From the NCBI RefSeq assembly GCF_000007185.1, contig NC_003551.1:660001-692000 (forward strand): 32,000 bases of DNA, in the 5' to 3' direction. The notes under the pieces were generated by a model. The model did not search any database. It was not told the origin of the DNA and saw only the letters and a list, made by a program, of their open reading frames with translations. The first letter of the stretch is position 1; each line of letters starts with the position of its first letter. The position numbers and the translations under genes were made by a program. Shown in pieces: positions 1,961 to 25,724 of the stretch. The stretch comes from Methanopyrus kandleri AV19. Lineage in GTDB: Archaea > JAADCQ01 > Methanopyri > Methanopyrales > Methanopyraceae.

Positions 1961-3658
1961 TTAGGGCCACACCCGGATGACTCTGCCGTTCTTCAGCACC
2001 ATGTCCGTGTTGGTACCCGGCAGCAGGAACCACTTCAGTATGTCGGCACCCGGGAGCGCGAACCCCTTCCTCCGGTCCGCGTCCGTGGCCAGCTGGAGCC
2101 CGATCCCCGCCAACAAGCTGTTGATTTGTCGAACCACGGGATCGTTCGAGTTGAAGCCGTACAGTCTGAAGAGTCGCACCGGCTCCCCCCGATCGTCGTA
2201 ACGCTCAGGCGGTCCGAACTCACTGGCTCGAACTCCGTTTATCACTCCTCTGAGCTTACCGCTCCTCGACGCCAACACCTCCATCCACGCCATCCAGTCG
2301 ACGGTCCCGAAGGGACCGTGTGCCCACACGTCCACCTCCTCCGCCGGCAGCGCGGGGATCAGCGTCTCCATACCGGCCTCGCACCTTTGGATAACATCCA
2401 CATCCGGGTCCTCGATGCCGTCGACCGAGACCACCCGGTTACTCGGGAGCACGTACAGTATCCCCGCGGCCCTCTCGATGAAGTTCGGGGGCCGACCCAC
2501 GTCGTCACCGAGCACGTTCTCCCTGGTCGGGAAGTAAGGAAGTATCACCCACTGGCTCTCCGTCTCACCGTCCACCTCGTTCTCGTTCAGGAGTTTCGTG
2601 TCGTCCCAGGGGAGCATCTTGCCCGGTATAGAGAGTACGTGGGCCAGCCTGAGCTTGTCCTCGTCGGCCTCACTGTTCCTCCCGTCACCGTTCACCTCGT
2701 TCAGGTACGCCGAGTAGAACCTTATCACGTCGGACTGCCCTACCCGTTCCCCTCCGATGGATCCGCCCTGCCCCACGGCCACCTGATAGTTGCCCATCAC
2801 GATCATCGGCTTGAACCTCAGCGGGCCGTCGCCCCACCGGTCCTTCGAGACGTAGTACGCCCAGATCGGGAGCGGATCGAACACGGCCTTGTTTTCGTTC
2901 CCCGAAGGAGCGTATCCCTGAATCGAGGCCTGGACGGTCGTCTGTCCGAGGTGGAGGTTGAATTGCTCCCATCCCGGTACCTGCGCGATGAGGTAGATGT
3001 CGAGGTGCACGTAAATCGTGAACGGGTCGTGGGCGTCGGGCACGATGGGTGTCCTGCTGACGTCCTTGGGATCAGAGCGCCCATACCAAGAGAGCCTTAC
3101 TTTCGGATGTTCGGGATCGCTCGTGTCCCAATACAAACTCCCATCACCAACGTAGCACCTGGGTACTATCCACACCTCTGCCCCTTGGGTCTGCTTGATC
3201 GAGTCATGAACGTCCACCGCGAGCTTCGCGAGCTCGTAGTCGATGTAGTAGCGCAGCGACTCTATCACGGTGCGGTACGAGTCGTAGTCCCCTTTCAGCC
3301 GCCCGACGTCGACGATGTCGTAAGGTGCAAGCAGCCCGGTGGGCGACGCCACCCACTCGATGTTAGTACCTCCCGCGTGGACGGCGATACGGCCGTATCG
3401 GTAACCGTTCTTCTCGCCGCCCGGCAGTTCGGTCCCGTTCAGGAAGTCCACGACGCCCAGGTACACGGCCCGGCTCAGCTGCTGATGCGTCATGGAGAGT
3501 ATGGCCTCGTTGATGACGGGCTTGATGTACTCGCATCGGATCAGGTACCCGGACTCCCTACCCCGGTACGACAGGTACGAAACGGACAGCAGCAACAAGG
3601 CCAACGCTAGTGCCACCGCCGGAGTGAACAGGAACCCCCTCTCCCCTCGGGGGATCAT
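1961..3658 (-). CDS. Hypothetical 565-aa protein with an N-terminal hydrophobic anchor; last gene of the pilus cluster (TadG-like position)
   Basis: Track ORF 1961..3709. The internal ATG at 3658 forms an ATGA overlap with the stop (3655..3657) of the upstream pilin-like gene, so I prefer it as the start. The N-terminus is MIPRGERGFLFTPAVALALALLLLSV: a charged stretch followed by one hydrophobic helix. The rest looks extracellular and includes an NGT sequon. No family recognised. Confidence 0.6.
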   Translation of the reverse strand: MIPRGERGFLFTPAVALALALLLLSVSYLSYRGRESGYLIRCEYIKPVINEAILSMTHQQLSRAVYLGVVDFLNGTELPGGEKNGYRYGRIAVHAGGTNIEWVASPTGLLAPYDIVDVGRLKGDYDSYRTVIESLRYYIDYELAKLAVDVHDSIKQTQGAEVWIVPRCYVGDGSLYWDTSDPEHPKVRLSWYGRSDPKDVSRTPIVPDAHDPFTIYVHLDIYLIAQVPGWEQFNLHLGQTTVQASIQGYAPSGNENKAVFDPLPIWAYYVSKDRWGDGPLRFKPMIVMGNYQVAVGQGGSIGGERVGQSDVIRFYSAYLNEVNGDGRNSEADEDKLRLAHVLSIPGKMLPWDDTKLLNENEVDGETESQWVILPYFPTRENVLGDDVGRPPNFIERAAGILYVLPSNRVVSVDGIEDPDVDVIQRCEAGMETLIPALPAEEVDVWAHGPFGTVDWMAWMEVLASRSGKLRGVINGVRASEFGPPERYDDRGEPVRLFRLYGFNSNDPVVRQINSLLAGIGLQLATDADRRKGFALPGADILKWFLLPGTNTDMVLKNGRVIRVWP

Positions 3659-4569
3659 CCGGCGGTCACCCCTACCCGGAGTTTCACGGGGAACAGCCCG
3701 GCCGTCCACTGGTTCCAGAAGATCTCGTTCTCCGACCCGCTCAGGGTGACGGTGAACGGCCTCCCTCCGATCGCGATGATAGTCAGGGACAGTCCCGAAC
3801 CCTCACCCTCCGCCACGATCCTCCTGACGAGCTCCACGGGATCGTCGGTGGCCCAACCGGACGACGAGTAGAACACTATCCTGTTGCCTCCCGAGTTCAT
3901 GGAGATGGCCTCTCGGGCTAGCTCCTTGTACGCTTCCTCCTCCGACAACCCCGACTGGATCAGCTGGTTGTAGCGCTTGTGCAGCCACCTCACCCAACCG
4001 TACAGCCCGTCCCCAGATACGGTCACCCACACCACCTTAACCCCGGGGACGTTTCCGGAGTAGCTCACCGTGTTCCCCCAGACCTGCGGTAGGTTCTCGT
4101 CGTAGACCCACGTATCTCCACGCTTCACCAACATGACGTCGTAGGACTTGACCACCGCCTCGCCCGAGACGTTCAGATCGTCGTTGGGAAAGACCAGGTC
4201 CGCCATCATCCGGCCGTCGTTCACCTTAATGGGAGAGTCCAGCGAGCCGCCCTCGGAGTAGCGCGTCCACTTGTACGCGTCGACGGCCAGGTACATCCGG
4301 ACCCCCGTCCTCAGCGGCGCGCCTCCCCAGGTCCACTGCAAGGGCTCGCTCCACAGCCACACGATGTCGTACGACGTTAGATTGGCTCCCACCCAGGACG
4401 GTGAGGTCAACGAGGCCGCGAACCTGTCCACCGAAGCGTACAGCTCGTAGGTTCTAAGGGAGGTGATCCCGTGGGCTGTCACCACCCGGGCTACGTCGGT
4501 CACCAGGAGCAGGATGATGGCGGATATAAGTCCCGCGGCGAGCGCGTCGACGGTGATCTGGCCCCTCAA
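3655..4569 (-). CDS. Pilin-like protein with a class III (type IV prepilin) signal peptide, 304 aa
   Basis: The N-terminus MRG/QITVDALAAGLISAIILLLV has G-1, Q+1, an acidic residue at +5 and then a hydrophobic helix. The TTG start at 4569 overlaps the upstream stop as TTGA. Sequons NLT and NVS are present in the large C-terminal domain. Confidence 0.7.
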   Translation of the reverse strand: MRGQITVDALAAGLISAIILLLVTDVARVVTAHGITSLRTYELYASVDRFAASLTSPSWVGANLTSYDIVWLWSEPLQWTWGGAPLRTGVRMYLAVDAYKWTRYSEGGSLDSPIKVNDGRMMADLVFPNDDLNVSGEAVVKSYDVMLVKRGDTWVYDENLPQVWGNTVSYSGNVPGVKVVWVTVSGDGLYGWVRWLHKRYNQLIQSGLSEEEAYKELAREAISMNSGGNRIVFYSSSGWATDDPVELVRRIVAEGEGSGLSLTIIAIGGRPFTVTLSGSENEIFWNQWTAGLFPVKLRVGVTAG

Positions 4570-4811
4570 GGCGTGGCCGCCCTCCGTACTACCTCGCTAC
4601 CCAGCTCCTTCATCCCGGCGGCCCATCCCGAGCCCGTGGTCGACACGAACCCACTGTTTGAAGCGTTAAGGGCGATACCTAAGGCGAACACGGCCGCTAT
4701 GACGGTCATCAACAGTATCGTCCACTCGACCGACACCTGACCGGAGCTACATCCATTTCGTAGCGAGCTCGTGACAAACGTTGGAAATCTTCTCGTTTTG
4801 GGCTCGGGCAA
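4566..4811 (-). CDS. Small pilin-like protein with a class III signal peptide (81 aa)
   Basis: Contains ...CSSG/QVSVEWTILLMTVIAAVFALGIAL, which fits QxSxExxxL. The only ATG/GTG/TTG start upstream of the motif is the TTG at 4811. That start implies a 65-nt overlap with the preceding gene, so the start is uncertain. Confidence 0.5.
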   Translation of the reverse strand: MPEPKTRRFPTFVTSSLRNGCSSGQVSVEWTILLMTVIAAVFALGIALNASNSGFVSTTGSGWAAGMKELGSEVVRRAATP

Positions 4812-4935
4812 CGTCGCCCAGCCCCGAAGAGGATTTCTTGAGGGGCATATAATAGCCTATGACCGCCGCCATGATGGCGACGGCGGCCACGAGCACTCCC
4901 AACACCAGCAGTTCTATGTTGGCTTGACCGCTCAC
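4747..4935 (-). CDS. Small pilin-like protein with a class III signal peptide (62 aa)
   Basis: Track ORF 4747..5061 would overlap most of the upstream pilin gene. The GTG at 4935 forms a GTGA overlap with that gene's stop (4932..4934). It gives MSG/QANIELLVLGVLVAAVAIMAAVIGYY. No other canonical start codon lies between 5061 and 4935. Confidence 0.6.
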   Translation of the reverse strand: MSGQANIELLVLGVLVAAVAIMAAVIGYYMPLKKSSSGLGDVARAQNEKISNVCHELATKWM

Positions 4936-5126
4936 AGTTTCTTGGCGGACGAGGCGAACCTTTCGAACCCCCCTGAGACGGCCGATCCCACGTCCTTCAG
5001 ACCCTGTTTCCCACCGCTGATCGGTAAATAGTACGCGATGACACCGACGGCTATGGCGCATCCCGCCACGATCGCTATGATCAGGAGGTACTCGACACCT
5101 CCCTGCCCTCTCACCCCCAGAGCCAT
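4932..5126 (-). CDS. Flp-like mini-pilin (64 aa)
   Basis: MALGVRG/QGGVEYLLIIAIVAGCAIAVGVIAYY has G/XXXXEY followed by a hydrophobic helix and a short G/S/A-rich tail. ATG at 5124..5126. It overlaps the peptidase gene's 3' end by 16 nt. Confidence 0.75.
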   Translation of the reverse strand: MALGVRGQGGVEYLLIIAIVAGCAIAVGVIAYYLPISGGKQGLKDVGSAVSGGFERFASSAKKL

Positions 5127-6085
5127 GACAGCGGGCTCCCCTGCAGCATGTAAGTGACCACGTACCCGGCGGCGATGGCCGGTGCGAAGGGAGTGGTGTG
5201 TCCCACCCTTATCCTATCTATCCCGAGTCGTTTCAACTTTTCGAGCTCCTCCTCGGTGAACCCGTCCCCGGAGGGCACGACCACGGGTTCCGCCCTACCG
5301 GTAGCAACCAGAAGCGCGCCTTTTAACCTACCGACACGCTCGGTCCCCTCCTCCGTTCGAACCACGATCTCCAACGGGATCTCTCCTTCCCTCAGTTCCT
5401 CTACGTTCCGTTCCTTCCCAGCCCATCGGTACGTGGTGAAGGCCGTCGAGAGGGCCACGGCGATGCCCACCTCCCAGAGGACGGCGATCGGAGACGCCCT
5501 GAGGTTGAGTAAAACCGCGGGGACGACGAGGGCGGGTAGGACGATCTTCAGCTTGGACTCGTACGACCTGGCGACCTTCCAGACCGCCAGGATCAGGAGG
5601 ATGCCTACCACCGAGGAGATCACGGTCCCCAGGATCGTCGCCACGCCTCCGGCGATCAAGCTCGCCAGAACCAGGATCGTGGTGTTCAGGCACAACTCCT
5701 TGAGGAAGGGGCGCCCACGGTCCAGCGCCGTACTGACGGTCAGGTACAGGAGTGCGAACGGTGCGTACAGCAGGATCGAGTTGAAGAGGACGTCGATACC
5801 CGTCGTGATACGATCGCCTCGATGGAGGAAGAGGGTGAGGGACGGTAGGAGCTTGACGTCACCACCTCCCAGCACGCCCAGCACGTTGAGGACGAGGGTC
5901 ACCCCGAACGCGACTCCGGCGTCCAACAGTGCGTAACCGAGGTGGGACGGATCGATGACCGCGGCGTAGATCGCCCCCGCGACGATCGCGGGATACGTAA
6001 GCCGGTTCGGTACGATCCCCCACTTGAGGTCGGTGATCGCGGCGACCGTGGCGACCGCCAGACCCGCCAAGAAGCCCACGTCCAT
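5111..6085 (-). CDS. Type IV prepilin/preflagellin peptidase, aspartic peptidase family A24 (FlaK/EppA/TadV-like)
   Basis: Polytopic membrane protein with the two catalytic-Asp contexts AAITDLKWGIVPN and LGGGDVKLL (GxGDxK). A soluble insert of about 75 aa (REGEIPLEIVVRTEEGTERVGRLKG...) precedes the last TM helix. The start is either the ATG at 6085 (324 aa, preferred, 5 nt after the upstream stop) or the GTG at 6124 (337 aa). Confidence 0.8.
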   Translation of the reverse strand: MDVGFLAGLAVATVAAITDLKWGIVPNRLTYPAIVAGAIYAAVIDPSHLGYALLDAGVAFGVTLVLNVLGVLGGGDVKLLPSLTLFLHRGDRITTGIDVLFNSILLYAPFALLYLTVSTALDRGRPFLKELCLNTTILVLASLIAGGVATILGTVISSVVGILLILAVWKVARSYESKLKIVLPALVVPAVLLNLRASPIAVLWEVGIAVALSTAFTTYRWAGKERNVEELREGEIPLEIVVRTEEGTERVGRLKGALLVATGRAEPVVVPSGDGFTEEELEKLKRLGIDRIRVGHTTPFAPAIAAGYVVTYMLQGSPLSWLWG

Positions 6086-6090
6086 CGTCG

Positions 6091-7089
6091 CTACCCCGAC
6101 AGGACCGATAGGATCTCGTTCCACCCCTCGATCGGCCTGTCCTGAGCGAGCATCCTGATGCCCCTGTCGATGGCCTCGACCCGCCGCTTAAGCTCCTGTA
6201 CCCTGAGCCGTTCGTCTTCCTCCTCCATCTCGATCTGGAAGCGACGACTCAGCTTCCGAAGGGCTCCGATCACGATCGGCCGCTTGGAGACCCGGGCGAG
6301 CCTCTCCGTGTACTCGCTACCCAGCTCCTCGGCGAACCTCTTACACACGGTCAGAACCCGTTGCGGGTTCCTGAAGCTTTCGGACGCCAGATGCGCCAGG
6401 ATCAGTTCCCTATCCCCGACCTCTTCGCTGAGCTCGGAGTGGAGCCTCCAGACCTCGGATAAGGCGGTCAGTAGGAGGTGTTCCCGTTCGGTGAGTATAC
6501 CCCGATCGTTGAACTTCGCCCGTACACGACCGTCCGCTTCCTCCAACACCTCCGAGAGCGGCGCAACGGACAGCGAGCTGGCTATCTTATCCACGATCTT
6601 GAAGTGTCGGTTCCCGGGGATCTCGGACCCGGAGCGGAGCACCACGACGTCGTACGAGTCCAGCCTGCTCAACACCTTGTTTAGGAACTTCCTGTCCATG
6701 ACGTCGCAGACGATCGGGGCCTCGGTGACCTCGTACAGCCTGCCCACGCGACCCTTCCTGCTCCAGCCGGAACTGTCCGCGTCGAACCCGAGTTCCGGGA
6801 GCTTCCTCAACAGCGCCTTGTTCACGGCCAATGCCGGTGCGCGGAAGCATTCTCCGAACTCCGAGGACAATTCGATGTGTGCTTGAGCGTCCTCTTCCGG
6901 TACGTACGTGAGCGGTACGTCGGAATACGTGGTACAGTGGATGTCCCAGTCCACCGCCTCGAGCGCGTCACGCATCTCCAAAATCGACAAATAGTCCGTA
7001 AAAACCGTGAGGTGGGCGTCTCGGGGTAAGGCTCCGAGCCTGTGGTGTCCTCTCTCTCCGAAGAGATCCACCGTGATCACCAGTTTCAC
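6091..7089 (-). CDS. Hypothetical cytoplasmic protein (332 aa) embedded in the pilus cluster
   Basis: The GTG start at 7089 is preceded by GGAGGT 7 nt upstream. No TM segment or signal peptide is visible. The C-terminal third is charged and helical (EMEEEDERLRVQELKRRVEAIDRGIRML). No family recognised with confidence. Confidence 0.65.
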   Translation of the reverse strand: MKLVITVDLFGERGHHRLGALPRDAHLTVFTDYLSILEMRDALEAVDWDIHCTTYSDVPLTYVPEEDAQAHIELSSEFGECFRAPALAVNKALLRKLPELGFDADSSGWSRKGRVGRLYEVTEAPIVCDVMDRKFLNKVLSRLDSYDVVVLRSGSEIPGNRHFKIVDKIASSLSVAPLSEVLEEADGRVRAKFNDRGILTEREHLLLTALSEVWRLHSELSEEVGDRELILAHLASESFRNPQRVLTVCKRFAEELGSEYTERLARVSKRPIVIGALRKLSRRFQIEMEEEDERLRVQELKRRVEAIDRGIRMLAQDRPIEGWNEILSVLSG

Positions 7090-7153
7090 GTTCAGACCTC
7101 CGTTTGAGCGTTGGTCCGGCGGTCTTGGGCGTGGTTCACGTAGTGATCACGAA

Positions 7154-7405
7154 TCACGTGATGCTGTTAGCATACGACTGTGCGGCGCTAGACGACGCCT
7201 TTGTGGCGGCTTCGGCTGCCGATTTCGTAGCTCCGGGTGGTGCGGCCGACTCGCCGGCCGCGCTGGCGAAACTCCACCAGTAGTACGCGACTAGGATTCC
7301 CAGTCCTATGAGAGCCGCGATGAGTATGAGGTACTCTACCCCTCCCTGCCCCTCCGCACCGGCGGACACTCTTCGAATAGTTTTAATTATTCTCCTAGCG
7401 GGCAA
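7154..7405 (-). CDS. Flp-like mini-pilin (83 aa)
   Basis: ...AGAEG/QGGVEYLILIAALIGLGILVAYYWW followed by an A/S/T/G-rich tail ending in SYANSIT. Start is the TTG at 7405 (GGTG about 9 nt upstream) or the GTG at 7369. Confidence 0.8.
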   Translation of the reverse strand: MPARRIIKTIRRVSAGAEGQGGVEYLILIAALIGLGILVAYYWWSFASAAGESAAPPGATKSAAEAATKASSSAAQSYANSIT

Positions 7406-7480
7406 CTCTCACACCAACCAACCGCCACTACTGACGTGACACCTGTCGACCGACCGATCAGTATGAATAGAGAAAGAAAG

Positions 7481-7490
7481 ATAATTTAAT
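7481..7490 (-). promoter_or_regulatory. Candidate TATA-like element upstream of the 7154..7405 pilin gene
   Basis: The minus strand reads ATTAAATTAT within an AT-rich stretch, about 75 nt upstream of the TTG at 7405. No transcription start data are available. Confidence 0.25.
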
Positions 7491-7540
7491 CTGCCAAGGG
7501 AGATAAGTGCTGGGGCGTGGGGTCGCCTGGATTGCTGGGC

Positions 7541-7768
7541 TTACGAGATCTTATTCGCATACGTCGACGCCATTTCAGTACCCTTCGACTTCGCCGTGCT
7601 ACCTGCCGTCGAGGCGCCACCCGAAGCTGACTTACCGGCTGCCTGCGCTGAGGTCCACCAGTAGTACGCGATCAGGATTCCCAGACCGATCAGCGCGGCG
7701 ATCAGCAGTAGGTACTCGATACCACCCTGACCGCGCTCAGACTTTACGAACTCCTTCAGAGCGCGCAT
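7541..7768 (-). CDS. Flp-like mini-pilin (75 aa)
   Basis: MRALKEFVKSERG/QGGIEYLLLIAALIGLGILIAYYWW followed by an A/S/T/G-rich tail ending in TYANKIS. I prefer the ATG at 7768 over the track's GTG at 7777. The gene has its own upstream AT-rich element. Confidence 0.85.
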   Translation of the reverse strand: MRALKEFVKSERGQGGIEYLLLIAALIGLGILIAYYWWTSAQAAGKSASGGASTAGSTAKSKGTEMASTYANKIS

Positions 7769-7803
7769 TTTACCCACTCCCCGGGAGTAAACCTACTCCT
7801 TTT

Positions 7804-7818
7804 CAATTTTTTAACTTT
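7804..7818 (-). promoter_or_regulatory. Candidate BRE/TATA element for the 7541..7768 pilin gene
   Basis: The minus strand reads AAAGTTAAAAAATTG and ends about 36 nt upstream of the ATG at 7768. A G-rich SD-like GGGGAGTGGG lies in between. The core AAAGTTAA[A/T]AA is shared with the element upstream of tRNA-Leu. Confidence 0.35.
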
Positions 7819-7858
7819 TCTCTTTCCGATTCACCCGACGTGCGTCGTTCTCAGTATG

Positions 7859-8047
7859 TTATACCCTAGACCACACTTCCGTAGCCTTACTCGCGGCGAC
7901 GTTAATCGAGTACGATCCGGTCTCCTTGGCGGCCGTCGCGGTGGACTTGGAGGAGGTCCAATAGTAATACGCGATCATTATCCCAAGACCCGCGAGAGCG
8001 GCGATTAAAATAAGGTACTCTATACCGCCTTGGCCGGAGCTCCTCAA
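7859..8047 (-). CDS. Flp-like mini-pilin (62 aa)
   Basis: MRSSG/QGGIEYLILIAALAGLGIMIAYYYW followed by an S/T/A-rich tail. The TTG start at 8047 directly abuts the TAA stop (8048..8050) of the TadC-like gene. Confidence 0.8.
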   Translation of the reverse strand: MRSSGQGGIEYLILIAALAGLGIMIAYYYWTSSKSTATAAKETGSYSINVAASKATEVWSRV

Positions 8048-9043
8048 TTACATTCCCCCTGCTGCGAGGAACGATGGCATCACCGACACTATCGCCAAGT
8101 ACACACCGGCGGCGGCAGCACCCAACGGTAGCCCGAATACCAACCCCCTTTTCATGTTTCCGTACCTGATGATTCCTATTGCCATTCCCGACAACAACCC
8201 CAACACAAGCGGATACGAAGCCAGAGGATCCTTCGCTTGAAGGTACATCGGGAGCATGGCGTAGGTGGGGCCCATCCTCTCCATCATCGCCACTCCTATC
8301 ACGGCTCCGATCGATACTCCGACTGGGAGTCCTGAAATAAGCCCTCCCAGCGCCAGTGCGAGGCAGGGCATGGTCGTGATGGCTTTCCGTTCCAGTTCTA
8401 TCCTACGCACCTCTCGGATATCGTTTTCGACGGCTTCAAGCACGTCGGCCAGCGCTCCACCGGACATAGAGATCCTGACCGTCAGACGGACTGCACGTGT
8501 TAGGAGCTCCGAATTCACGCGCTCGGCCATGTCCAAGATGGCTTCCTCGAACGTTTTGCCCGTATCCATATCCCGGACGACTATCCGGAACTCTCGTGAT
8601 AGTTCCCCGTAGTCCGACTCGGCTACGTTCCGAATGGTTTCGAATATAGAAAGACCCGCGCGGAGCTCCTCTACCATTTGTCGTAGAGCATCTGGCAGGT
8701 TTTCTTCAATATCTTTAATTCTCAAACTCTGAACTATACGGGGGTGTATTAATAAGTATAACGGCATTACTGCGAGTAAGAACGCGGTCGATCCTAGTTT
8801 TGGAATTAATGGTCCTGAGATCGACATTCCTATAAGTACGTAAATGAGTGATGCGGATAGATATATCTCATAGGGTACGTCGATATTGCTTACTTGGAGG
8901 AGATAATCCATTCTTCTAAGGTATTCAGGAGACATGCGAATGACTAAAATTCGGGCTAGCGGTAGTGCGAGTGGATACAATATGAGTACAATTAGACGTA
9001 TCACAGGTCCTATATTCCTCAACATCGGTAGCAGTGGGAGCAC
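8048..9043 (-). CDS. Pilus platform membrane protein, TadC/FlaJ-like (single T2SS-F-type domain), 331 aa
   Basis: Has TM helices at both ends and a cytoplasmic helical domain LPDALRQMVEELRAGLSIFETIRNVAESDYGELSREFRIVVRDMDTGKTFEEAILDMAER. That domain is clearly paralogous to the one in the neighbouring 424-aa protein. GTG start at 9043. Confidence 0.8.
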   Translation of the reverse strand: MLPLLPMLRNIGPVIRLIVLILYPLALPLARILVIRMSPEYLRRMDYLLQVSNIDVPYEIYLSASLIYVLIGMSISGPLIPKLGSTAFLLAVMPLYLLIHPRIVQSLRIKDIEENLPDALRQMVEELRAGLSIFETIRNVAESDYGELSREFRIVVRDMDTGKTFEEAILDMAERVNSELLTRAVRLTVRISMSGGALADVLEAVENDIREVRRIELERKAITTMPCLALALGGLISGLPVGVSIGAVIGVAMMERMGPTYAMLPMYLQAKDPLASYPLVLGLLSGMAIGIIRYGNMKRGLVFGLPLGAAAAGVYLAIVSVMPSFLAAGGM

Positions 9044-9055
9044 GATAATGGCCCC

Positions 9056-10330
9056 CTAAACCTTAGGCTCCGCCGATTTGAATATGAACAGGAATATCCC
9101 CGCCATCACGCCGACCATTCCTGCTATCATTGGCCCGAATAGAGGCGGTGGCACTAGGAAGGCCCCGGACAGGTTCGCCGCCAGGAGCATCGCGACCGTT
9201 ACGAGGGTCGGTATTACGAGGGTCAGCATTATGTACGGGAACGCCAACGCTTGGAGTTTGTGTCCGTACTCCCTGTAACGTTGACGTAGCTCGTGGGCGA
9301 TCTCATCTGCGAGGGTCATCAATGTCTTCGCGATATTCGCGCCTGATTCCATGGCTTGGGTGATGAATCTGACCATAGTTCTTAGTCCATCTACGTTCCA
9401 TCGGTTGGCCATCCGCTGCAAGGCGACATTAATCGGGGTTCCGCTGTTGATCTCTCGGATTACCCTTTCGAACTCCTCGGAGAGCGCTCCGTAGTCGGAT
9501 TCCGAGATACTCTTCATGGATTCTATAAGCGACAGTCCAGCCGACACCTCGGTGGCCATTTGGCGGATGGCGTACGGGAGTTGCCGCGCGATCTCGCCTT
9601 CTCGTCGCCTGATGAGGATAGTGACCATCATCCTCGGTACCACCATGCCCAGGAGGAAGCTCATGATCGGGCCCAGCACCTTGAGCGGTAGCGGTAACGG
9701 GAAGAGCGCCGCCGGAACCGACGTCAAAACGACTCCCATCAAGCCGCTGATGATCATGAACGTCGCGAAGGCCGCGGGAGATATCCTGAGTCCGGCCTTC
9801 TGTAGGACCTCTCTGTCGGGTGCCAATCCCCTGAACCTGTTTCCGAGTGTTGGGCTGAGGGACTGCACCATTTCGATCAACGTTTCCAGGACGTTAGCCC
9901 GCTCCCTGCACAGCCTGCGTAGCCTCTCGTTGATTTCCTCGGCGGTCCGGTCCCGCTCTCCTTCCTCCTCTATGCCCAGGACTATCCGCTTGATCTTCTC
10001 GACGTCCTCTCCCTGTTCCCCGCGTACCGCGTGCCGGGCTGCCCTGACCTTGGCCGTGAGACTAGACTCGAGACGTCCTCCTAACATTCTGCTCGTACTC
10101 TCACGGAGCTTCTCAGCTAGTCCAGAGAACGACGGTAAGCTCAGCGGGAGTCCTCCACCCGCCCCGGACGGTGTCGACTCCTTTACCTTCTGTACCTGTC
10201 TAGTTACCATGAACACGACGTACTCCGCGTACAGACCTACGCGTTCAGCCACTCCCGTCACGTAGAGGACTACCGCGCCGCCGACTCCCACGCCGATGAT
10301 CGTGAGTAGAGTCTCAGGGGACGGGAGCAA
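9056..10330 (-). CDS. Pilus platform membrane protein, TadB/FlaJ-like (single T2SS-F-type domain), 424 aa
   Basis: Contains the domain LPYAIRQMATEVSAGLSLIESMKSISESDYGALSEEFERVIREINSGTPINVALQRMANR flanked by TM helices. TTG start at 10330, 3 nt after the ATPase stop. Confidence 0.8.
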   Translation of the reverse strand: MLPSPETLLTIIGVGVGGAVVLYVTGVAERVGLYAEYVVFMVTRQVQKVKESTPSGAGGGLPLSLPSFSGLAEKLRESTSRMLGGRLESSLTAKVRAARHAVRGEQGEDVEKIKRIVLGIEEEGERDRTAEEINERLRRLCRERANVLETLIEMVQSLSPTLGNRFRGLAPDREVLQKAGLRISPAAFATFMIISGLMGVVLTSVPAALFPLPLPLKVLGPIMSFLLGMVVPRMMVTILIRRREGEIARQLPYAIRQMATEVSAGLSLIESMKSISESDYGALSEEFERVIREINSGTPINVALQRMANRWNVDGLRTMVRFITQAMESGANIAKTLMTLADEIAHELRQRYREYGHKLQALAFPYIMLTLVIPTLVTVAMLLAANLSGAFLVPPPLFGPMIAGMVGVMAGIFLFIFKSAEPKV

Positions 10331-10333
10331 CGT

Positions 10334-12142
10334 TTAGTACCCCGAGATGCCCACCTTCTCCAGCACCGACTCTCTGTTCTTGTAGAACTCGTGTATGAAC
10401 TCCCCGACCTCCCTCACGTGCCTGATATTATTGTCGACCAAGTACTTCAAGATTCGCTTACGTATCTCAATTTCATGGAGTATTTCGTCCATACTCATTC
10501 CGGTTTTCTCCTGAATCTTCTTGAAGACCATGCTAGGTACTTCGGTACTCGTAACCTCATCAGTTTCAGGCTTCCACTCGAACACCGTGTTCAGCTGGAC
10601 GGTGTCACCCTCCATTCCGGCGATTTCCGAGATCTCCGTGATACGTCGAATTGATCCGGACCCACGCTGGAGGAACCTATTCTGCATCACTATAATGTCG
10701 AGCGCTGGGATCATAATCTTTGGGACGTTCATGGGTTCATTGGTGAGTCTGGTGATAGTTTCACGAGCTGTGTTAGCGTGTAAGGTACCCATACAACCGT
10801 CATGTCCCGTATTCATAGCGGTGAACAATGTACGTGCTTCGGGACCTCGCACCTCTCCCACTATAATCCTATCAGGCCGCTGTCGGAGTGTGTTCTTTAC
10901 GAGATCATCCATAGTAATTTCGCCACGACCTTCAACGTTAGGTGGTTTGGTCGTCAGTCGTACCCAGTGTTCGTGAGGAAGTTGGAGCTCGAGAGTGTCC
11001 TCAATAGTGATCACTCTCTCCTCCGGAGGGATGAAAATACAGAGACAGTTTAAAGTCGTAGTTTTACCACTACCTGTACCTCCAGCAATTAGAATGTTCG
11101 CCCCATATTCAACGGCTAGCCACAAATATGCCGCAGCTTCATAACTCATAGTTCCAAACTTGATTATGTCAGTTATCGTCAGTGGATCCTCTCTAAACTT
11201 ACGAATTGTAAGCGTGGGACCGTCCGGACTCACCGGAGGGATAGTGGCATTCACTCGACTGCCATCCGGTAAATGCGCATCGAGAAGTGGGTTTTCCTGA
11301 TCTATTCTTCGACCTGATTCTCGCGAAATCCGCTCGATCACCGTGCGAATTGAACGTGAAGTGACTCGGAAATTGCATAGACACATTCCATGATCACGGT
11401 CATATACGTAAATGAAGCAATGCTTGGCAGTACCACCGAGTACGACCTCAGGTACTACCATTATCTCCTCTAGATTGTCGTCTTTCAACAGCGGATGTAT
11501 CTCCTTGTACCCAACCATTTCATACATAAGTAAATGGGCTAAATCATCCTTAACAACTTCAAGTTCTGGGTACTCCTCTAACACTGCGTCGAAGTTCTCC
11601 TTCACTAGCTCGACAAACGCCTTTTCTCTCTCTTTAAGGGTCGCGTATTCCGTCGGATCGAAGTCGATATTCATCGATAGAATATCCTTAATCTCGTCAA
11701 GAACTTTCCGAAACTCTTCGTCATCACGGGCGTACGGTGGAGCCTGTGATCCCAGGCGTTTTAGAACTTGTGTCCTAATACGTTCGAAGTTGTAGTACTG
11801 CTCGTACTCTTTCGATATGTATACTGGCACCGGTTGATCCGGGTACTCCACGATCCTGCGGATGTTGTCGTCACACAGTATCTTCCCTTCCCATCCCTCC
11901 CTCTCCGCCAGTTCGTGCGCTTCCAGGACCTCCGCGGCTTTCTCGGATGACAGTGGGGAGATCTTCGATTCCTCAGCCTCGTAGTGCTCTCCACTGGCTT
12001 CGGCGGTTTCCTCGACGGTCTCGGGGCTTTCCGACTTCGACTCTTCCTCCTTCTCCCCTAATATGTCGCGGAGGAGGTCGTCCTCCTCCAGGCCCCCGAT
12101 CAGGTCTTTGATGTTCCTTTTCCGGGGCACCGTCCACACCAC
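10334..12142 (-). CDS. Type II/IV secretion-family ATPase (TadA/FlaI/VirB11-like), 602 aa
   Basis: Walker A is AGGTGSGKTTTLN and Walker B region is RVITIEDTLELQL. Also has GEVRGPEA and the His box TGHDGCMGTLHAN. The N-terminal extension is acidic. GTG start at 12142. Confidence 0.9.
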   Translation of the reverse strand: MVWTVPRKRNIKDLIGGLEEDDLLRDILGEKEEESKSESPETVEETAEASGEHYEAEESKISPLSSEKAAEVLEAHELAEREGWEGKILCDDNIRRIVEYPDQPVPVYISKEYEQYYNFERIRTQVLKRLGSQAPPYARDDEEFRKVLDEIKDILSMNIDFDPTEYATLKEREKAFVELVKENFDAVLEEYPELEVVKDDLAHLLMYEMVGYKEIHPLLKDDNLEEIMVVPEVVLGGTAKHCFIYVYDRDHGMCLCNFRVTSRSIRTVIERISRESGRRIDQENPLLDAHLPDGSRVNATIPPVSPDGPTLTIRKFREDPLTITDIIKFGTMSYEAAAYLWLAVEYGANILIAGGTGSGKTTTLNCLCIFIPPEERVITIEDTLELQLPHEHWVRLTTKPPNVEGRGEITMDDLVKNTLRQRPDRIIVGEVRGPEARTLFTAMNTGHDGCMGTLHANTARETITRLTNEPMNVPKIMIPALDIIVMQNRFLQRGSGSIRRITEISEIAGMEGDTVQLNTVFEWKPETDEVTSTEVPSMVFKKIQEKTGMSMDEILHEIEIRKRILKYLVDNNIRHVREVGEFIHEFYKNRESVLEKVGISGY

Positions 12143-12150
12143 CTTCGGTG

Positions 12151-13917
12151 TTATAGCTCCAGGTCCTTAAGTAGGTCGTCTACGTCTTCGATGTCCTCCG
12201 TTTCTTCCTCAATGATCTCTGTCTCTCGCTCTTCTTTCCCAGTTTCGGGTTCTACTCCCACGCCTTCGGTGGTCTCTTCCTCCTCGGCGCCTTCCATGAG
12301 CTCTTCCATCGTCGTTGCCTCCGCGAGGACCGAGGCCCGGAACGTACCCACTACTTCGACGTCGGTGAACTCTATGCCCCACTCACGCAGGAGACTGATG
12401 AACCGTGTCGGGGTCGTTCCCTCCAAGTCCACGTATACGTCGGTCCCCATGGGCGAAACCGTACGGACACCCGGAATTTTCTCGATCTCGTTCACGTCCT
12501 CTTCAGTCACTCCTTTCACCACTATCGTCGTCACCGGAACCTCCGTCTCCTCGGTGCCGAACTTGTCGAGGTCCGCACCTTTACGCTGCAGGGTCAATAC
12601 GATGTGCTTTCTCAGCGCCTTCTCGACGATCTCGCCGTCTATGACGTCTTTACCCTCCTGAATGCGGATCGCCTGGGCGAGCTGTGCGATGTCTCGGGCG
12701 TAGGCGAAGGTAGGTTTCAAACCCCAGCCTCCCTCTTCTTCGGGCGTGAACGCCCGGCGGTAGGTCTCCAGTGCGTCCTCGGTGTATTCCTCGCCCATCT
12801 CATCAAGCCGCTTTCTGAACAGGTTCACGGCTTCTTCCAGGGGTGGGTGGGACAGATGCACGAACAAGGGGGCACGACGCAGGTGCGCCTCGTCGAACAC
12901 CGTGATCGGTAGGTTCGTCGAGAACGCCGCGATGAAGTCGCAGAACACCTCGACCGCGGTGCCGCCGACGTGGACGATGTCCTTCTTGTTCTCCATCGGT
13001 ACGATCAACCTGTTCAGGATGGCGATGTGAGAGTCCCTCTGACGCCCCACGTCGTCCACGAGGAACACGCCACCGTGGGCTTTCACGTGTGGCGGTACCT
13101 CGTAGACGCCCTTCTCCGCGTCGTACCGACCTTGGAGGTCGTCGAGGGTGAGTTCCGCGCCAGTGAACACGAACGGGGCGTGGATCTTTACCCAGCGCTC
13201 GTCCCCGGGCTGCTCCCGTCGGGGCCTCGGCTCGTGGAAGTCCGGGTCGTAGAGCTGCAGCACGCTACCCGCCACGTACACGGCTTTCGGGATCACGATA
13301 GGGGGTAGTAACTTCGCCATTCGGCTGAGCGTGAACGTCTTACCCGTACCCGGTGGTCCGAAGACGACGAGACCCCTCCCGCTGGTCGCCGCGAGGTAGT
13401 ACGTCCGCTTGGCTTCCTCCGCTCCGATTACGTCGTGGAAGGCGTACTCGTACACCTCCTCGGGGATCTCGATGGGGTATCGACCCTCCACTTGGTCCCC
13501 TACAACCTCTTGGTACATGTCGTAGGGGACGGGACACACGCCGATGTACGGGTCTTCGCTCATGATGTTCGCGGCCAGCTCGCGCCCCTTAGGAGTCACG
13601 TCGAAAGTGGTGTTCTGGAACATCGGCCCTCCACCGGTGTGACCCACCAACTTCCGATCCTGAAGCTCGTCGACGATCTCCTCCAGGATGGGGATCGGAA
13701 TCCGTGTGACTTCGTAGATCTCCCTCCCTTCCACCGGTCCTCGGTCCGCGATGACCTTGAGCACGAGGTTCTCGATGTACTCCTCGGGTAAGCCCAGATC
13801 CTCTATCGATTTGGGTTTGGCCAACGACTCCACTACTTCGACTATTTCCGGCCGGTTGTAATACTCCTCGACGGCCTTGAGGATCTCGGGGGGTAGGTCC
13901 TCGGCCAACCCGTTCAC
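12151..13917 (-). CDS. AAA+ ATPase (ChlI/Mg-chelatase-like pattern) with an N-terminal wHTH-like region and an acidic C-terminal tail, 588 aa
   Basis: Walker A is GPPGTGKTF and Walker B-like is GGVFLVDDVG. The downstream pattern LNRLIVPMEN...VHVGG...FIAAFSTN resembles the ChlI/MCM-type helix-2-insert AAA+ clade. The N-terminus has a MarR-like pattern (REIYEVTRIPIPILEEIVDELQDRKLV...FDVTPKGRELA). The C-terminus is EEETEDIEDVDDLLKDLEL. The GTG start forms a GTGA overlap with the upstream stop, and the stop lies 8 nt before the TadA-like start. Confidence 0.75.
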   Translation of the reverse strand: MNGLAEDLPPEILKAVEEYYNRPEIVEVVESLAKPKSIEDLGLPEEYIENLVLKVIADRGPVEGREIYEVTRIPIPILEEIVDELQDRKLVGHTGGGPMFQNTTFDVTPKGRELAANIMSEDPYIGVCPVPYDMYQEVVGDQVEGRYPIEIPEEVYEYAFHDVIGAEEAKRTYYLAATSGRGLVVFGPPGTGKTFTLSRMAKLLPPIVIPKAVYVAGSVLQLYDPDFHEPRPRREQPGDERWVKIHAPFVFTGAELTLDDLQGRYDAEKGVYEVPPHVKAHGGVFLVDDVGRQRDSHIAILNRLIVPMENKKDIVHVGGTAVEVFCDFIAAFSTNLPITVFDEAHLRRAPLFVHLSHPPLEEAVNLFRKRLDEMGEEYTEDALETYRRAFTPEEEGGWGLKPTFAYARDIAQLAQAIRIQEGKDVIDGEIVEKALRKHIVLTLQRKGADLDKFGTEETEVPVTTIVVKGVTEEDVNEIEKIPGVRTVSPMGTDVYVDLEGTTPTRFISLLREWGIEFTDVEVVGTFRASVLAEATTMEELMEGAEEEETTEGVGVEPETGKEERETEIIEEETEDIEDVDDLLKDLEL

Positions 13918-14513
13918 CCCGGCGCCCGAAGTACCCAGTAACCCCCTCCCCTCGCGGCGACCTCCGCCGACCCGAAAACAGTACGCATCTCAGACAAAAT
14001 CCTTTTCGAGCCCATTTTACGGCGAACCACCAGCCAAAGCTCGCCGTCTTCGGTTAGATGGTTCGGAGCTTCTCTCACTATTCTCAGAACTAAGTCCAAT
14101 CCCTCGCGAATGGGTGGGTTGGACACGATCCTGTCGAACTCCTCATCCTCAACGGGATCGTAGAGGCTACCCTCCCGCACCTCGGTGATATCCTCCACGT
14201 CGTTCAGCCGACGGTTCTCATTCGCAAGCCATATAGCCCTCCGGTTCACGTCCGTCATCACCACGTGCCCTTCTCCCAGCTCTTTGGCCGCCACGATCCC
14301 TAAAACTCCGTATCCACAACCCAAGTCCAGGACGCTGTGTACTCCTTCGAGGTCCATGTTCTCCGCGAGAAGTTGCGTCCCTGGATCGATCCTCCTCCAC
14401 GAGAACACGCCGGGGGCAGTGAGGAACCTGTACTCCCGCCCTCGAATACGCGCGATGATCATCCCTAGTTCTTCTCTGCTCGGCTTTCCACGCCCGGAAT
14501 AGGGCGCTCGCAA
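13914..14513 (-). CDS. Class I SAM-dependent methyltransferase, small-domain RsmC/RsmD/MJ0882-like (199 aa)
   Basis: Motif I is VLDLGCGYGVLGI and motif IV is NPPIREG. The N-terminal YSGRGKPS...APGVFS resembles the YYSEKPS...SGVFS start of this family. The track ORF (to 14600) runs into the tRNA gene, so it is too long. I prefer the TTG at 14513, which has GGTGGAG 6 nt upstream. Alternatives are the GTG at 14522 and the ATG at 14462. Confidence 0.8.
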   Translation of the reverse strand: MRAPYSGRGKPSREELGMIIARIRGREYRFLTAPGVFSWRRIDPGTQLLAENMDLEGVHSVLDLGCGYGVLGIVAAKELGEGHVVMTDVNRRAIWLANENRRLNDVEDITEVREGSLYDPVEDEEFDRIVSNPPIREGLDLVLRIVREAPNHLTEDGELWLVVRRKMGSKRILSEMRTVFGSAEVAARGGGYWVLRAPG

Positions 14514-14555
14514 AGTCTCCACCCTTTTCGTTACAATTATCGTAACGATCTCCGG

Positions 14556-14645
14556 TGGTGCGGGGGCCGGGATTTGAACCCGGGACGGCCCTACGGCCAC
14601 GGGATCCTAAGTCCCGCCCCTTTGACCAGGCTCGGGCGCCCCCGC
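14556..14645 (-). tRNA. tRNA-Leu: tRNA-Leu, anticodon UAG, class II (long variable arm), CCA encoded
   Basis: The reverse complement folds as a cloverleaf:
- acceptor stem GCGGGGG/CCCCCGC;
- D arm CCC-GAGCCTGGTCAAA-GGG, with A14 and G18G19;
- anticodon stem CGGGA/TCCCG with loop CTTAGGA (anticodon TAG);
- 16-nt variable arm TGGCCGTAGGGCCGTC;
- T arm CCGGG-TTCAAAT-CCCGG;
- discriminator A followed by CCA.
Position 8 is C. Confidence 0.9.
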
Positions 14646-14674
14646 GCCGGTCGAGCTCCTACCTCCTTCTAGCT

Positions 14675-14686
14675 CTTATTAACTTT
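14675..14686 (-). promoter_or_regulatory. Candidate TATA-like promoter element for tRNA-Leu
   Basis: The minus strand reads AAAGTTAATAAG and ends 30 nt upstream of the mature tRNA 5' end (14645). This spacing fits an archaeal TATA box plus a short leader. Confidence 0.35.
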
Positions 14687-14960
14687 ATCCCCCGGCTGTT
14701 TCCCCAAGAAGTGGGAGTCCATGATCGGCCACCCGTAGCCGCTCCAGCCTGTGTTATATAATTGTGATTCGAGGAACATTAAGCCAATTTTATAGTGTAT
14801 AATTAGGATTAAAGAACAGCTTCTGTCCCCTAACGACTTATGTTTACAACGCTTGTTGATTTCATGATCTCTTAACCTACTAGACACTTCTTTGACGGAA
14901 ATATCATCACCAATATGATGCATCATTACACTATAATGAAGATGTAACAATCGGATAGGC

Positions 14961-15017
14961 TAACTGGAAACCCGTAATAAAACCGATCGCAAACTGGCGG
15001 TGGGCAAAGATAACTGG
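14961..15017. repeat. Three direct copies of the heptamer WAACTGG (TAACTGG, AAACTGG, TAACTGG)
   Basis: Copies lie at 14961..14967, 14991..14997 and 15011..15017, with start-to-start spacing of 30 and 20 nt. They sit in the non-coding stretch downstream of aspS. Confidence 0.4.
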
Positions 15018-15104
15018 GGCACGTGGACGCGAGAAACATTACGGAGCCCGGGAGGAACAGCGCGAGTCTGAGACGGCAACCGTCGCGGATCACCGCACCC
15101 CACC

Positions 15105-20293: not shown

Positions 20294-20575
20294 ATGGCAG
20301 AGGAGGAGAACGTGGTATACGTCGGCAGTAAGCCCGTCATGAACTACGTTCTGGCCTGTATTACGCAGTTTAATGAGGGCGCCAACGAGGTCCGGATCAA
20401 GGCGCGTGGCCGTGCGATCAGCCGTGCAGTCGACGTCGCGGAGATCGTCAGGAACCGCTTCATGCCCGAGGTCGAGGTCAAGGACATTAAGATCGGTACC
20501 GAGGAGCTAGAGACGGAGGAGGGCGACACCGTCAACGTGTCTACGATCGAGATCGTGCTCGAGAAGCCCGTGTAA
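20294..20575 (+). CDS. albA: Chromatin protein Alba (Sso10b family), 93 aa
   Basis: [26 protein letters not shown]...[24 protein letters not shown] is the typical Alba signature. The track ORF start (20204) is an upstream extension. ATG at 20294. Confidence 0.92.
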
Positions 20576-25229: not shown

Positions 25230-25234
25230 GCCCG

Positions 25235-25714
25235 TTGCCGCTACCGAGGGACCCCACACTGATTTACACGGACAAGGCCGAGGTGGCCCGAGCGCCGGTG
25301 CTCAAGATGGTGTTCCGTCGCGCTAACGATTCGCTGATGATCGTCGGCCCGAGGGCCGTGGAGGACGAGGAGTGGCGAGAACTCCTGATGAAGCTGCGCG
25401 AGGAGTTCAGGATGAGCGCCGTCTGCACGGCCCCGTACAAGGGCAATGACCTGGGTCGCAAGATGGGCATCGTCGAGGCGGCGACCCTGCTCCAGCGGGA
25501 CGCCCCGGTGCTCGGAGTTCACCCGGATCTTGTCGTGTTCACGGGCTCCCGCACCGACGTAACCGACCGCGTGCTTCAAGGACTTCGTCATGCGCGGCCG
25601 GACCTGGTGAAAGTATCATTGAACCCCGAGTACTGTCCCAGCGCAGATTACTCGCTACCTACAGTGAAGAGGGATCAGTTCCTCCAAGAGTTGAAGGCTT
25701 TAGTGGGAATCTAG
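25235..25714 (+). CDS. cdhB: CODH/ACS complex epsilon subunit (about 159 aa)
   Basis: The gene's position after cdhA and the block PVLKMVFRRANDSLMIVGPRA match the epsilon-family pattern (..KMI.KAKRPLL.VGP). The start is uncertain. I prefer the TTG at 25235, just after the cdhA stop. Alternatives are the TTG at 25169 (61-nt overlap) and the ATG at 25307. Confidence 0.78.
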   Translation: MPLPRDPTLIYTDKAEVARAPVLKMVFRRANDSLMIVGPRAVEDEEWRELLMKLREEFRMSAVCTAPYKGNDLGRKMGIVEAATLLQRDAPVLGVHPDLVVFTGSRTDVTDRVLQGLRHARPDLVKVSLNPEYCPSADYSLPTVKRDQFLQELKALVGI

Positions 25715-25724
25715 GGGTGAGAAG

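Follow-up and report, generated by a model that had tools for sequence, protein, structure and literature searches.

The DNA stretch analysed in this work, hereafter the window, consists of 32,000 nucleotides of the hyperthermophilic methanogen Methanopyrus kandleri AV19 (contig NC_003551.1, positions 660,001 to 692,000). Between its positions 1961 and 13917 it contains a gene cluster that is very probably a real and complete member of the Epd-like family of archaeal type IV pili (T4P), also known as 'clade 1' and named 'System 1' by Sivabalasarma & Albers (2026), with a split platform of the TadB/TadC type and Flp-sized pilins. Fourteen tightly packed open reading frames (ORFs), all on the minus strand, were recovered at the same coordinates as in an earlier sequence-only reading, which had proposed a complete archaeal Epd/Tad-like T4P cluster. 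This proposal is borne out by significant profile matches for the ATPase (PF00437), for both platform proteins (PF00482 in each) and for the prepilin peptidase (PF01478), and by seven N-termini displaying a prepilin-type signal; the features and the corresponding E-values are collected in Table 1. As the tests applied to the motor, the platform and the pilins all agree, the core of this reading is supported.

The kind of system and its M. kandleri member are both already known, the family being published and the ATPase being listed in a census. The novelty implied by the sequence-only reading was overstated in this respect, the locus having been annotated in the 2002 genome. The window proteins are exact matches to GenBank entries of M. 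kandleri AV19: the 602-aa ATPase is identical to AAM01921.1, AAM01917.1 is annotated as "Prepilin-cleaving (Type IV) signal peptidase", and AAM01912.1 and AAM01913.1 are each annotated as "Uncharacterized secreted protein". Judging from the accessions returned by the cluster look-up, several genes of the locus were apparently missed in the original 2002 GenBank annotation. For both platform proteins and for p62, a pilin of 62 aa, only later WP_/HII accessions were listed, and the second platform protein is shortened to 225 aa, instead of 331 aa, in one RefSeq model. Makarova et al. (2016) reported clade 1 ATPases from methanococci, methanobacteria, M. kandleri and thermococci. In their tables, the 602-aa ATPase is assigned to Clade_1/arCOG01819 and the counts given for M. 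kandleri in Table S3 are clade_1=1, clade_2=0, clade_3_archaellum=0 and clade_4=0; this protein is therefore the sole T4P-type motor in the genome. Two single-domain platform genes together with short pilins were described by Denise et al. (2019) as common to Epd-like systems and bacterial Tad, the latter being derived from an Epd-like archaeal system.

The ATPase, described as of the TadA/FlaI type from the sequence alone, is placed in clade 1 by its census entry (arCOG01819); in comparison with PDB sequences, Caulobacter CpaF/TadA (281 bits) ranks well above Sulfolobus FlaI (217 bits), A. fulgidus GspE2 reaching 290 bits. Outside Methanopyrus, the closest relatives are proteins of Hydrothermarchaeales and 'CpaF family' proteins of Thermococcus (52-56% identity), the nearest named ones being the Thermococcus clade-1 ATPases (53-56% identity). 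The protein scores below the NCBIfam equivalog cutoffs of both FlaI (338.8 vs 550 bits) and TadA (TIGR03819, 250.7 vs 373.15), as expected for a separate archaeal clade; the FlaI model yields its top raw NCBIfam score largely because the N-terminal domain is also covered. Exactly one PF00482 domain is present in each of the two platform proteins, which were correctly predicted to be single-domain proteins. On the UpsF model, which describes a two-domain platform in 484 positions, platform protein 1 aligns to positions 39-246 (N-terminal half) and platform protein 2 to positions 230-405 (C-terminal half), a pattern that fits gene fission rather than duplication, as in the model of Denise et al. 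(2019). The A24 prepilin peptidase, recognised as such from the start, displays both catalytic motifs (DLK at D32 and GGGD at D89) and at least seven hydrophobic segments; its ORF encodes 337 aa and is annotated as 324 aa from an ATG at 6085.

A separate observation concerns the ATPase homologues of about 1040 aa found in Hydrothermarchaeales (L004, 10001-13123, P0141; P0136-P0155). An intein, expected from the literature, was considered for these proteins and rejected. Instead, two complete TadA/CpaF-like modules are fused in tandem, one at residues 71-520 and the other at 583-1037; both align over their full length with 52% identity and have an intact Walker A motif. With two ATPase modules covalently joined in this way, a hexamer would be built as a trimer of dimers.

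In the seven prepilin-type N-termini, Gly-1 and Gln+1 are combined with an acidic residue (Glu or Asp) at +5 and a stretch of 17 residues whose mean Kyte-Doolittle hydropathy is 2.3-3.0. With the slash marking the predicted cleavage site, four of them (p62, p78, p83 and p64) read G/QGG[IV]EY and the others G/QANIEL (p62b), G/QVSVEW (p81) and G/QITVDA (304-aa protein). The mature length of the six small pilins is 57-64 aa. The signals were searched using our own combination of motif and hydropathy: when all six frames of the 32 kb were scanned for [GA]Q...[ED] and a hydrophobic 17-mer, exactly these seven sites and no others were returned, as compared to a mean of 0.005 sites in composition-matched shuffles. 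The combination of Q+1 and an acidic +5 in all seven proteins fits the published rule for EppA substrates (Q+1 and E+5), and the short pilins are devoid of a globular domain.

L006 and L003, two further genomes of Methanopyrus with ATPases about 90% and about 80% identical, respectively, keep the whole gene order. L006 has the six small ORFs and the two large ones at syntenic positions; the more distant L003 retains the two large ORFs along with five of the small ones. The start codon of p62 abuts the stop codon of the second platform gene, and its L006 orthologue is 77% identical. The TTG start context of p83 (GGTGxGAGAGTTGCC) is kept in L006, and p83 itself is absent from L003, where two tandem copies are found and not three. 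An alternative GTG start of p64 at 5114 would give MRG/Q; the L006 orthologue of this pilin is 83% identical. The p62b gene was formerly included in a 104-aa ORF and has its true start at GTG 4935, in a GTGA overlap with the stop codon of p64; its orthologue in L006 is 76% identical and begins with VSGQASIEL. The leader and motif of p81, as well as the N-terminus of the 304-aa protein, are kept in L006, in L003 and in L009, a member of a deeper lineage considered below.

Table 1. Features of the M. kandleri AV19 pilus locus and of its upstream neighbour, in the order of transcription (positions refer to the window).
Feature	Position	Strand	Evidence or remark
AAA+ ATPase, 588 aa, upstream neighbour	12151..13917	-	Mg_chelatase/YifB match 1.8e-9, Walker-A region only
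Pilus assembly ATPase, TadA/CpaF/EpdL-like, 602 aa	10334..12142	-	PF00437 T2SSE E=4e-50
Platform protein 1, 424 aa, TadB/EpdJ-or-K-like	9056..10330	-	one PF00482 T2SSF, 3.5e-24; five hydrophobic segments
Platform protein 2, 331 aa, TadC-like	8048..9043	-	one PF00482 T2SSF, 8.9e-22
Flp-like mini-pilin p62, MRSSG/QGGIEY, mature 57 aa	7859..8047	-	Class_IIIsignal 4.6e-4
A/T-rich element CGGAAAGAGAAAAGTTAAAAAATTGAAAAGGA	7797..7828	-	29-60 nt upstream of p78 ATG; putative archaeal BRE/TATA promoter (BRE, B recognition element)
Flp-like mini-pilin p78, ..SERG/QGGIEY, mature 62 aa	7541..7777	-	probable start ATG 7768 (75/78 aa)
T-rich run after p78 stop, putative archaeal terminator	7466..7483	-	T-rich run in L006 too
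Flp-like mini-pilin p83, ..GAEG/QGGVEY, mature 64 aa	7154..7405	-	Class_IIIsignal 4.9e-4
332-aa cytoplasmic protein, first gene of module B	6091..7089	-	no transmembrane (TM) segment
EppA-type class III signal (prepilin) peptidase	5111..6124	-	PF01478 Peptidase_A24 9e-18 and PF06819 Arc_PepC 1e-5
Mini-pilin p64, ..GVRG/QGGVEY, AAM01916.1 'MK-19 family'	4932..5126	-	Class_IIIsignal 5.4e-5
Mini-pilin p62b, MSG/QANIEL, 62 aa	4747..4935	-	motif; no Pfam match
Mini-pilin p81, 24-aa leader ..CSSG/QVSVEW	4566..4811	-	motif; Class_IIIsignal only E=0.56
304-aa pilin-like protein, MRG/QITVD and extracellular domain	3655..4569	-	TTGA start/stop overlap
565-aa N-terminally anchored protein, MIPRGERG/FLFTP.., candidate tip or base component	1961..3658	-	start ATG 3658, ATGA overlap

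A number of observations weigh against the assignment to the Epd-like family, or against parts of it. The Pfam Class_IIIsignal model matches four of the seven N-termini at E<=5e-4, with one of these at the gathering score, a fifth at E=0.56, and leaves two unseen. The seven class III signals announced by the sequence-only reading thus stand at the level of the motif (G/Q, acidic +5 and helix in 7/7) and not at that of the hidden Markov model. In three of the seven N-termini, position -2 is occupied by Ser and not by a charged residue, the processing sites of Methanococcus maripaludis having K or R at this position, and several leaders have only 3-5 residues. The peptidase aligns end-to-end with the NCBIfam EppA model (positions 4-331 of 334, 2.8e-9), but with 36.8 bits for a cutoff of 450. 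The 565-aa protein has neither Q+1 nor an acidic +5. No FleN/MinD (TadZ-like) ATPase, which is usual in clade 1 loci (frequent, not universal), was found within 1961-13917. Finally, the promoter and terminator roles assigned to the elements flanking p78 are read from the sequence only. The gene identities, motifs, catalytic residues, synteny and division into two modules are established; the processing, order of assembly, choice of the major pilin and biological role proposed below are inferred.

Comparison of the Methanopyri genomes allows the locus to be divided into module A, made of the ATPase, the two platform proteins and the three Flp-like pilins p62, p78 and p83, and module B, made of the 332-aa protein, the peptidase, p64, p62b, p81, the 304-aa protein and the 565-aa protein. 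Module B also occurs by itself, amid unrelated genes and without ATPase or platform, in a deeper "Methanopyri archaeon" lineage (L009, L010 and L012); the free-standing block is composed there of a 344-aa homologue of the 332-aa protein, an A24 peptidase, three small G/Q pilins, a 304-aa protein and a 545-aa protein. The locus is therefore made of two modules. The loci of Thermococcus and Hydrothermarchaeales have no more in common with it than the ATPase and both platform genes, the Hydrothermarchaeales locus adding one 76-aa pilin. In module B, the start codon of one gene overlaps the end of the preceding one at four junctions (GTGA, 65 nt shared by p81 and p62b, TTGA and ATGA). The peptidase and p64 genes overlap as well, by 16 nt if p64 starts at ATG 5126 and as GTGA if it starts at 5114. 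These overlaps suggest synthesis of a multi-protein complex in fixed ratio. As other type IV filaments have tip complexes made of minor pilins, module B may by analogy act in priming or at the tip.

Within module A, the tandem Flp-like pilin genes (7154-8047) vary in number among Methanopyrus genomes, with three copies in AV19 and L006 and two in L003 (14163-14661), and diverge much more rapidly than the motor (54-77% identity in L006 vs about 90%). The p78 pilin has the best Class_IIIsignal match of the set (4.2e-5), the only one to reach the gathering score. It also displays a weak match to Flp_Fap (E=0.027, 14.7 bits vs a gathering score of 32.2), and is, of the small pilins, the one best matched (71 bits) in the more distant genome L003. 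Its gene is preceded by a gap of 81-90 nt that holds the A/T-rich element, near-invariant between the window and L006 whereas the flanking intergenic DNA diverges. Because of this apparent promoter of its own and of the putative terminator that follows, p78 is the likeliest candidate for the major subunit.

The first protein of module B, described earlier as an unknown cytoplasmic protein, agrees with that description: it has 332 aa, no TM segment and no family or significant fold match. No member of its family matches Pfam or NCBIfam, a profile search of the PDB gave no significant match, and its AlphaFold2 model (pLDDT 71; two runs) returned no significant fold match when compared to the PDB using Foldseek. 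An exhaustive HMMER profile search confined it to the class Methanopyri, with three clusters among 1.84 billion representatives. Its gene is always found directly upstream of the A24 peptidase, including in L009, L010 and L012 where the ATPase is missing. The protein belongs to module B and has no assignable activity. Motifs noticed by eye (TVDxFG, FRAPxLA, DSSGW and VVLRxGSE) had evoked a polysaccharide deacetylase of carbohydrate esterase family 4, which is not claimed, the only hints being a GH57 enzyme at E=0.67 and PDB entry 2qv5, itself a divergent deacetylase-like protein, at TMq 0.30 and E=4.8.

The 304-aa protein was rightly described as pilin-like, with G/Q, Asp+5 and a hydrophobic helix; it has no Pfam match, and its homologues were sought by local comparisons only. 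The 565-aa protein has a single TM segment (residues 8-26) and an N-terminal ERGF[LI]FTP motif that is invariant down to 40% identity, and was found only in Methanopyri in one pattern scan of GTDB genomes. With Q+1 and the acidic +5 both missing, it may not be cleaved by an EppA-type enzyme. The likeness to TadG put forward for this protein did not extend beyond gene position, no sequence similarity being detected in Pfam, NCBIfam or the PDB. The tight coupling of five pilin-type genes with two large extracellular proteins could also be read as a short pseudopilus, or as a secretion-and-display device similar to a type II secretion system or a bindosome, presenting the 304-aa and 565-aa proteins; the functionalisation of archaeal type IV filament machineries by binding proteins bearing class III signal peptides has been proposed in the literature. 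Such a device is highly improbable here: no substrate-binding-protein or other domain was detected in either large protein, the three tandem Flp-like pilin genes, one with a promoter-like element, indicate an abundant filament subunit, and the characterised homologues form long pili. An Epd-like pilus is the preferred reading.

The AAA+ ATPase encoded upstream of the motor was initially counted as a member of the cluster and is better regarded as a neighbour. Its stop codon lies 8 nt from the start of the pilus ATPase, a gap kept in four Methanopyri lineages. Its orthologues in Methanobacteriales (about 45% identity), which also possess clade 1 pili, are located away from the pilus genes, in an S8e/PolB-fragment/HAD neighbourhood, in three contexts, and no AAA+ gene is found beside the ATPase in the Thermococcus and Hydrothermarchaeales loci. 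Inclusion of the gene by default was rejected after inspection of the three Methanobacteriales contexts. It is unlikely, though less so than the pseudopilus, that this protein is a true component, either as a lineage-specific stand-in for TadZ/FleN/MinD or FlaH, or as a ComM-like DNA-uptake factor. Its place just upstream of the main ATPase recalls that of TadZ in Tad loci, and the methyltransferase-AAA+-ATPase order is kept in the four lineages, including L013 whose genes further upstream differ. Moreover, its best PDB match is ComM, clade 1 pili are required for natural transformation in M. maripaludis, and the M. kandleri locus contains no MinD-type gene. The upstream methyltransferase is nevertheless equally conserved and is a housekeeping orthologue of MJ0882, so that adjacency is weak evidence of shared function; the similarity to ComM/YifB is limited to about 60-75 residues around the P-loop, far under the family cutoffs, and a stand-alone MinD-type gene (arCOG00589) is present elsewhere in the genome. 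The sole MinD/CbiA-like gene of the window (29032-29805) sits in a carbon monoxide dehydrogenase/acetyl-CoA synthase (CODH/ACS) operon and is not a candidate for TadZ.

Further features were noted around the cluster. The long methyltransferase ORF (13914-14600, minus strand) is overlapped in its 5' part by a tRNA-Leu gene (anticodon TAG, 14556-14645, minus strand), so that the methyltransferase proper must start near 14513 and have about 199 aa. This enzyme had been considered as a pilin N-methylase by analogy with PilD/HemK; this role was dropped upon its identification as the MJ0882 orthologue (PDB 1dus, 153 bits). A low-GC stretch (14646-15104) separates the genes of the aspartyl-tRNA synthetase and tRNA-Leu. 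Only the first 42 codons or so (15093-14968) are left of a gene encoding a membrane protein of 411-413 aa that is intact there in L003 and L006, and the remainder shows no homology; a deletion or replacement has therefore occurred in AV19. On the other side, a large gene on the plus strand (1-1821) converges on the pilus cluster and runs off the window start, its N-terminus lying outside the window. It has no Pfam match and occupies the same position in L003 and L006, with orthologues of 847-862 aa. A 782-aa ORF without Pfam match (20541-22889, minus strand) lies between a KH-domain gene and the CODH/ACS (cdh) operon. The latter (22947-31000, plus strand) encodes two Prismane/CODH-type subunits, CdhC, the CooC-like MinD/CbiA ATPase mentioned above and CdhD.

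Among known systems, the locus most directly recalls Epd of M. maripaludis and the other clade 1 members, with which it shares an ATPase of the arCOG01819 type, a pair of adjacent platform genes with a single T2SSF domain each, a large and probably EppA-type peptidase of its own, predicted substrates with Q+1 and E+5, proteins of about 60-70 aa having the size of a major pilin and no globular domain, several minor pilins and large accessory proteins of the class III type. A dedicated large (9-TM) EppA-type prepilin peptidase (arCOG02300) is a criterion of the clade 1 family. It also differs from them. All the M. kandleri parts are grouped in one 10-kb locus, whereas those of M. maripaludis are distributed over at least three loci and a major pilin gene, which stands alone in this family. 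The M. kandleri locus has no DUF2341 adhesin, no transglutaminase-like peptidase and no FleN/MinD gene, the 332-, 304- and 565-aa accessory proteins were detected only in Methanopyri (the 304-aa protein being sought by local comparisons), and the leaders can be as short as 3 aa, often with Ser at -2.

The Flp processing motif of bacterial pilins is G/XXXXEY, and the tad genes follow the order tadA-B-C-(D)-E-F-G. The order observed here (ATPase, platform 1, platform 2, minor pilins, large anchored protein) runs parallel to the latter. The bacterial Tad/Flp systems (type IVc; Aggregatibacter tad, Caulobacter cpa), to which the Epd-like pilus is the archaeal sister, also share with the locus a TadB/TadC-type split platform, a peptidase without methyltransferase domain and Flp-sized pilins, four of which bear the Flp processing motif (G/QGG[IV]EY); among solved structures, CpaF ranks second as a relative of the ATPase, with the 281 bits given above. 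The secretin RcpA/CpaC, TadD, RcpB/C and TadZ of the bacterial systems are all missing from the M. kandleri locus, no locus protein matching Secretin, TadD or TadZ/ParA-type models in Pfam or NCBIfam. Other differences are the ATPase score under the TadA cutoff (250.7 vs 373), the Flp_Fap match of only E=0.027, the EppA-like multi-TM peptidase of about 330 aa, the 565-aa protein without detectable similarity to TadG and the fact that M. kandleri is an archaeon without outer membrane. The system would operate in the manner of a Tad pilus, although it is not itself one. The archaellum (ArlI/ArlJ/ArlB) belongs to the same superfamily with respect to the ATPase, the platform, the A24 peptidase and the class III signal peptides, but its single ArlJ contrasts with the split platform of M. 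kandleri, whose ATPase is under the FlaI cutoff of 550; no archaellins and no ArlC/D/E/F/G/H/X were found in the window.

The following mode of operation can be proposed. The seven prepilins would enter the membrane via their class III signal peptides and would be cut after Gly-1 by the EppA-type aspartyl peptidase (D32, D89), leaving Gln+1. The products of module B (p64, p62b, p81, the 304-aa protein and probably the 565-aa protein) would be made in fixed proportion, given the four overlapping gene junctions, and form a priming or tip complex. The hexameric TadA/CpaF-like ATPase, acting via the TadB-like/TadC-like platform pair, would then polymerise at least one of the three Flp-like pilins of 57-64 aa into a thin filament, with the 75/78-aa p78 as the likely major subunit. 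The homologous pili of M. maripaludis mediate attachment and natural transformation; the M. kandleri filament would most likely serve for attachment to surfaces and between cells, and possibly for DNA uptake.

The locus also bears on a discrepancy noted in reviews, where M. kandleri is described as motile by means of polar tufts of archaella although no arl/fla genes are present; the reviews leave this discrepancy unresolved and call for isolation of the filaments. No paper linking the tuft filaments to the locus 1961-13917 was found in the literature collection searched. With the sole T4P-type motor and no archaellum genes in the organism, the locus is the only known T4P-type machine that could build the tufts and is therefore a candidate for the reported "flagella". 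In its stronger form, this proposal would have the locus build the tufts as a rotating or retracting motility organelle made of Flp-like pilins, without archaellum genes. Two papers describing a motile M. kandleri devoid of arl/fla genes, as well as the count of one motor in Table S3 of Makarova et al. (2016), speak in its favour. It is nonetheless improbable, although less so than the pseudopilus: the window contains no archaellum-specific component (ArlF/G/H/X/CDE, archaellins), the FlaI cutoff is failed (338.8 vs 550), no retraction ATPase is evident, the Epd pili of M. maripaludis serve for attachment and not for swimming, and the original report of motility may be wrong or may concern filaments other than T4P. 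Should it be true, motility by Flp-like filaments would be a second, independent route from the type IV pilus to a motility organelle. Much likelier, with about an even chance of being correct, is the simpler explanation that the polar tufts are Epd-like pili of an organism without true motility.

As a kind of system, the locus adds little to current knowledge, the Epd-like/clade 1 pili and their kinship with Tad being published. It is the most compact version among those compared, with a motor, a platform, a peptidase, six mini-pilins and two large accessory proteins gathered on one strand in about 10 kb, and this compactness recommends it as a minimal gene set from which a hyperthermophilic Tad-like pilus could be rebuilt in vitro or in a heterologous host. 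The split between modules points to a set of putative priming or tip proteins specific to the lineage, an orphan protein of the cytoplasm among them. Lastly, the reported "flagella" of M. kandleri have been without genetic explanation since 2002, and the locus supplies six candidate subunits for them.

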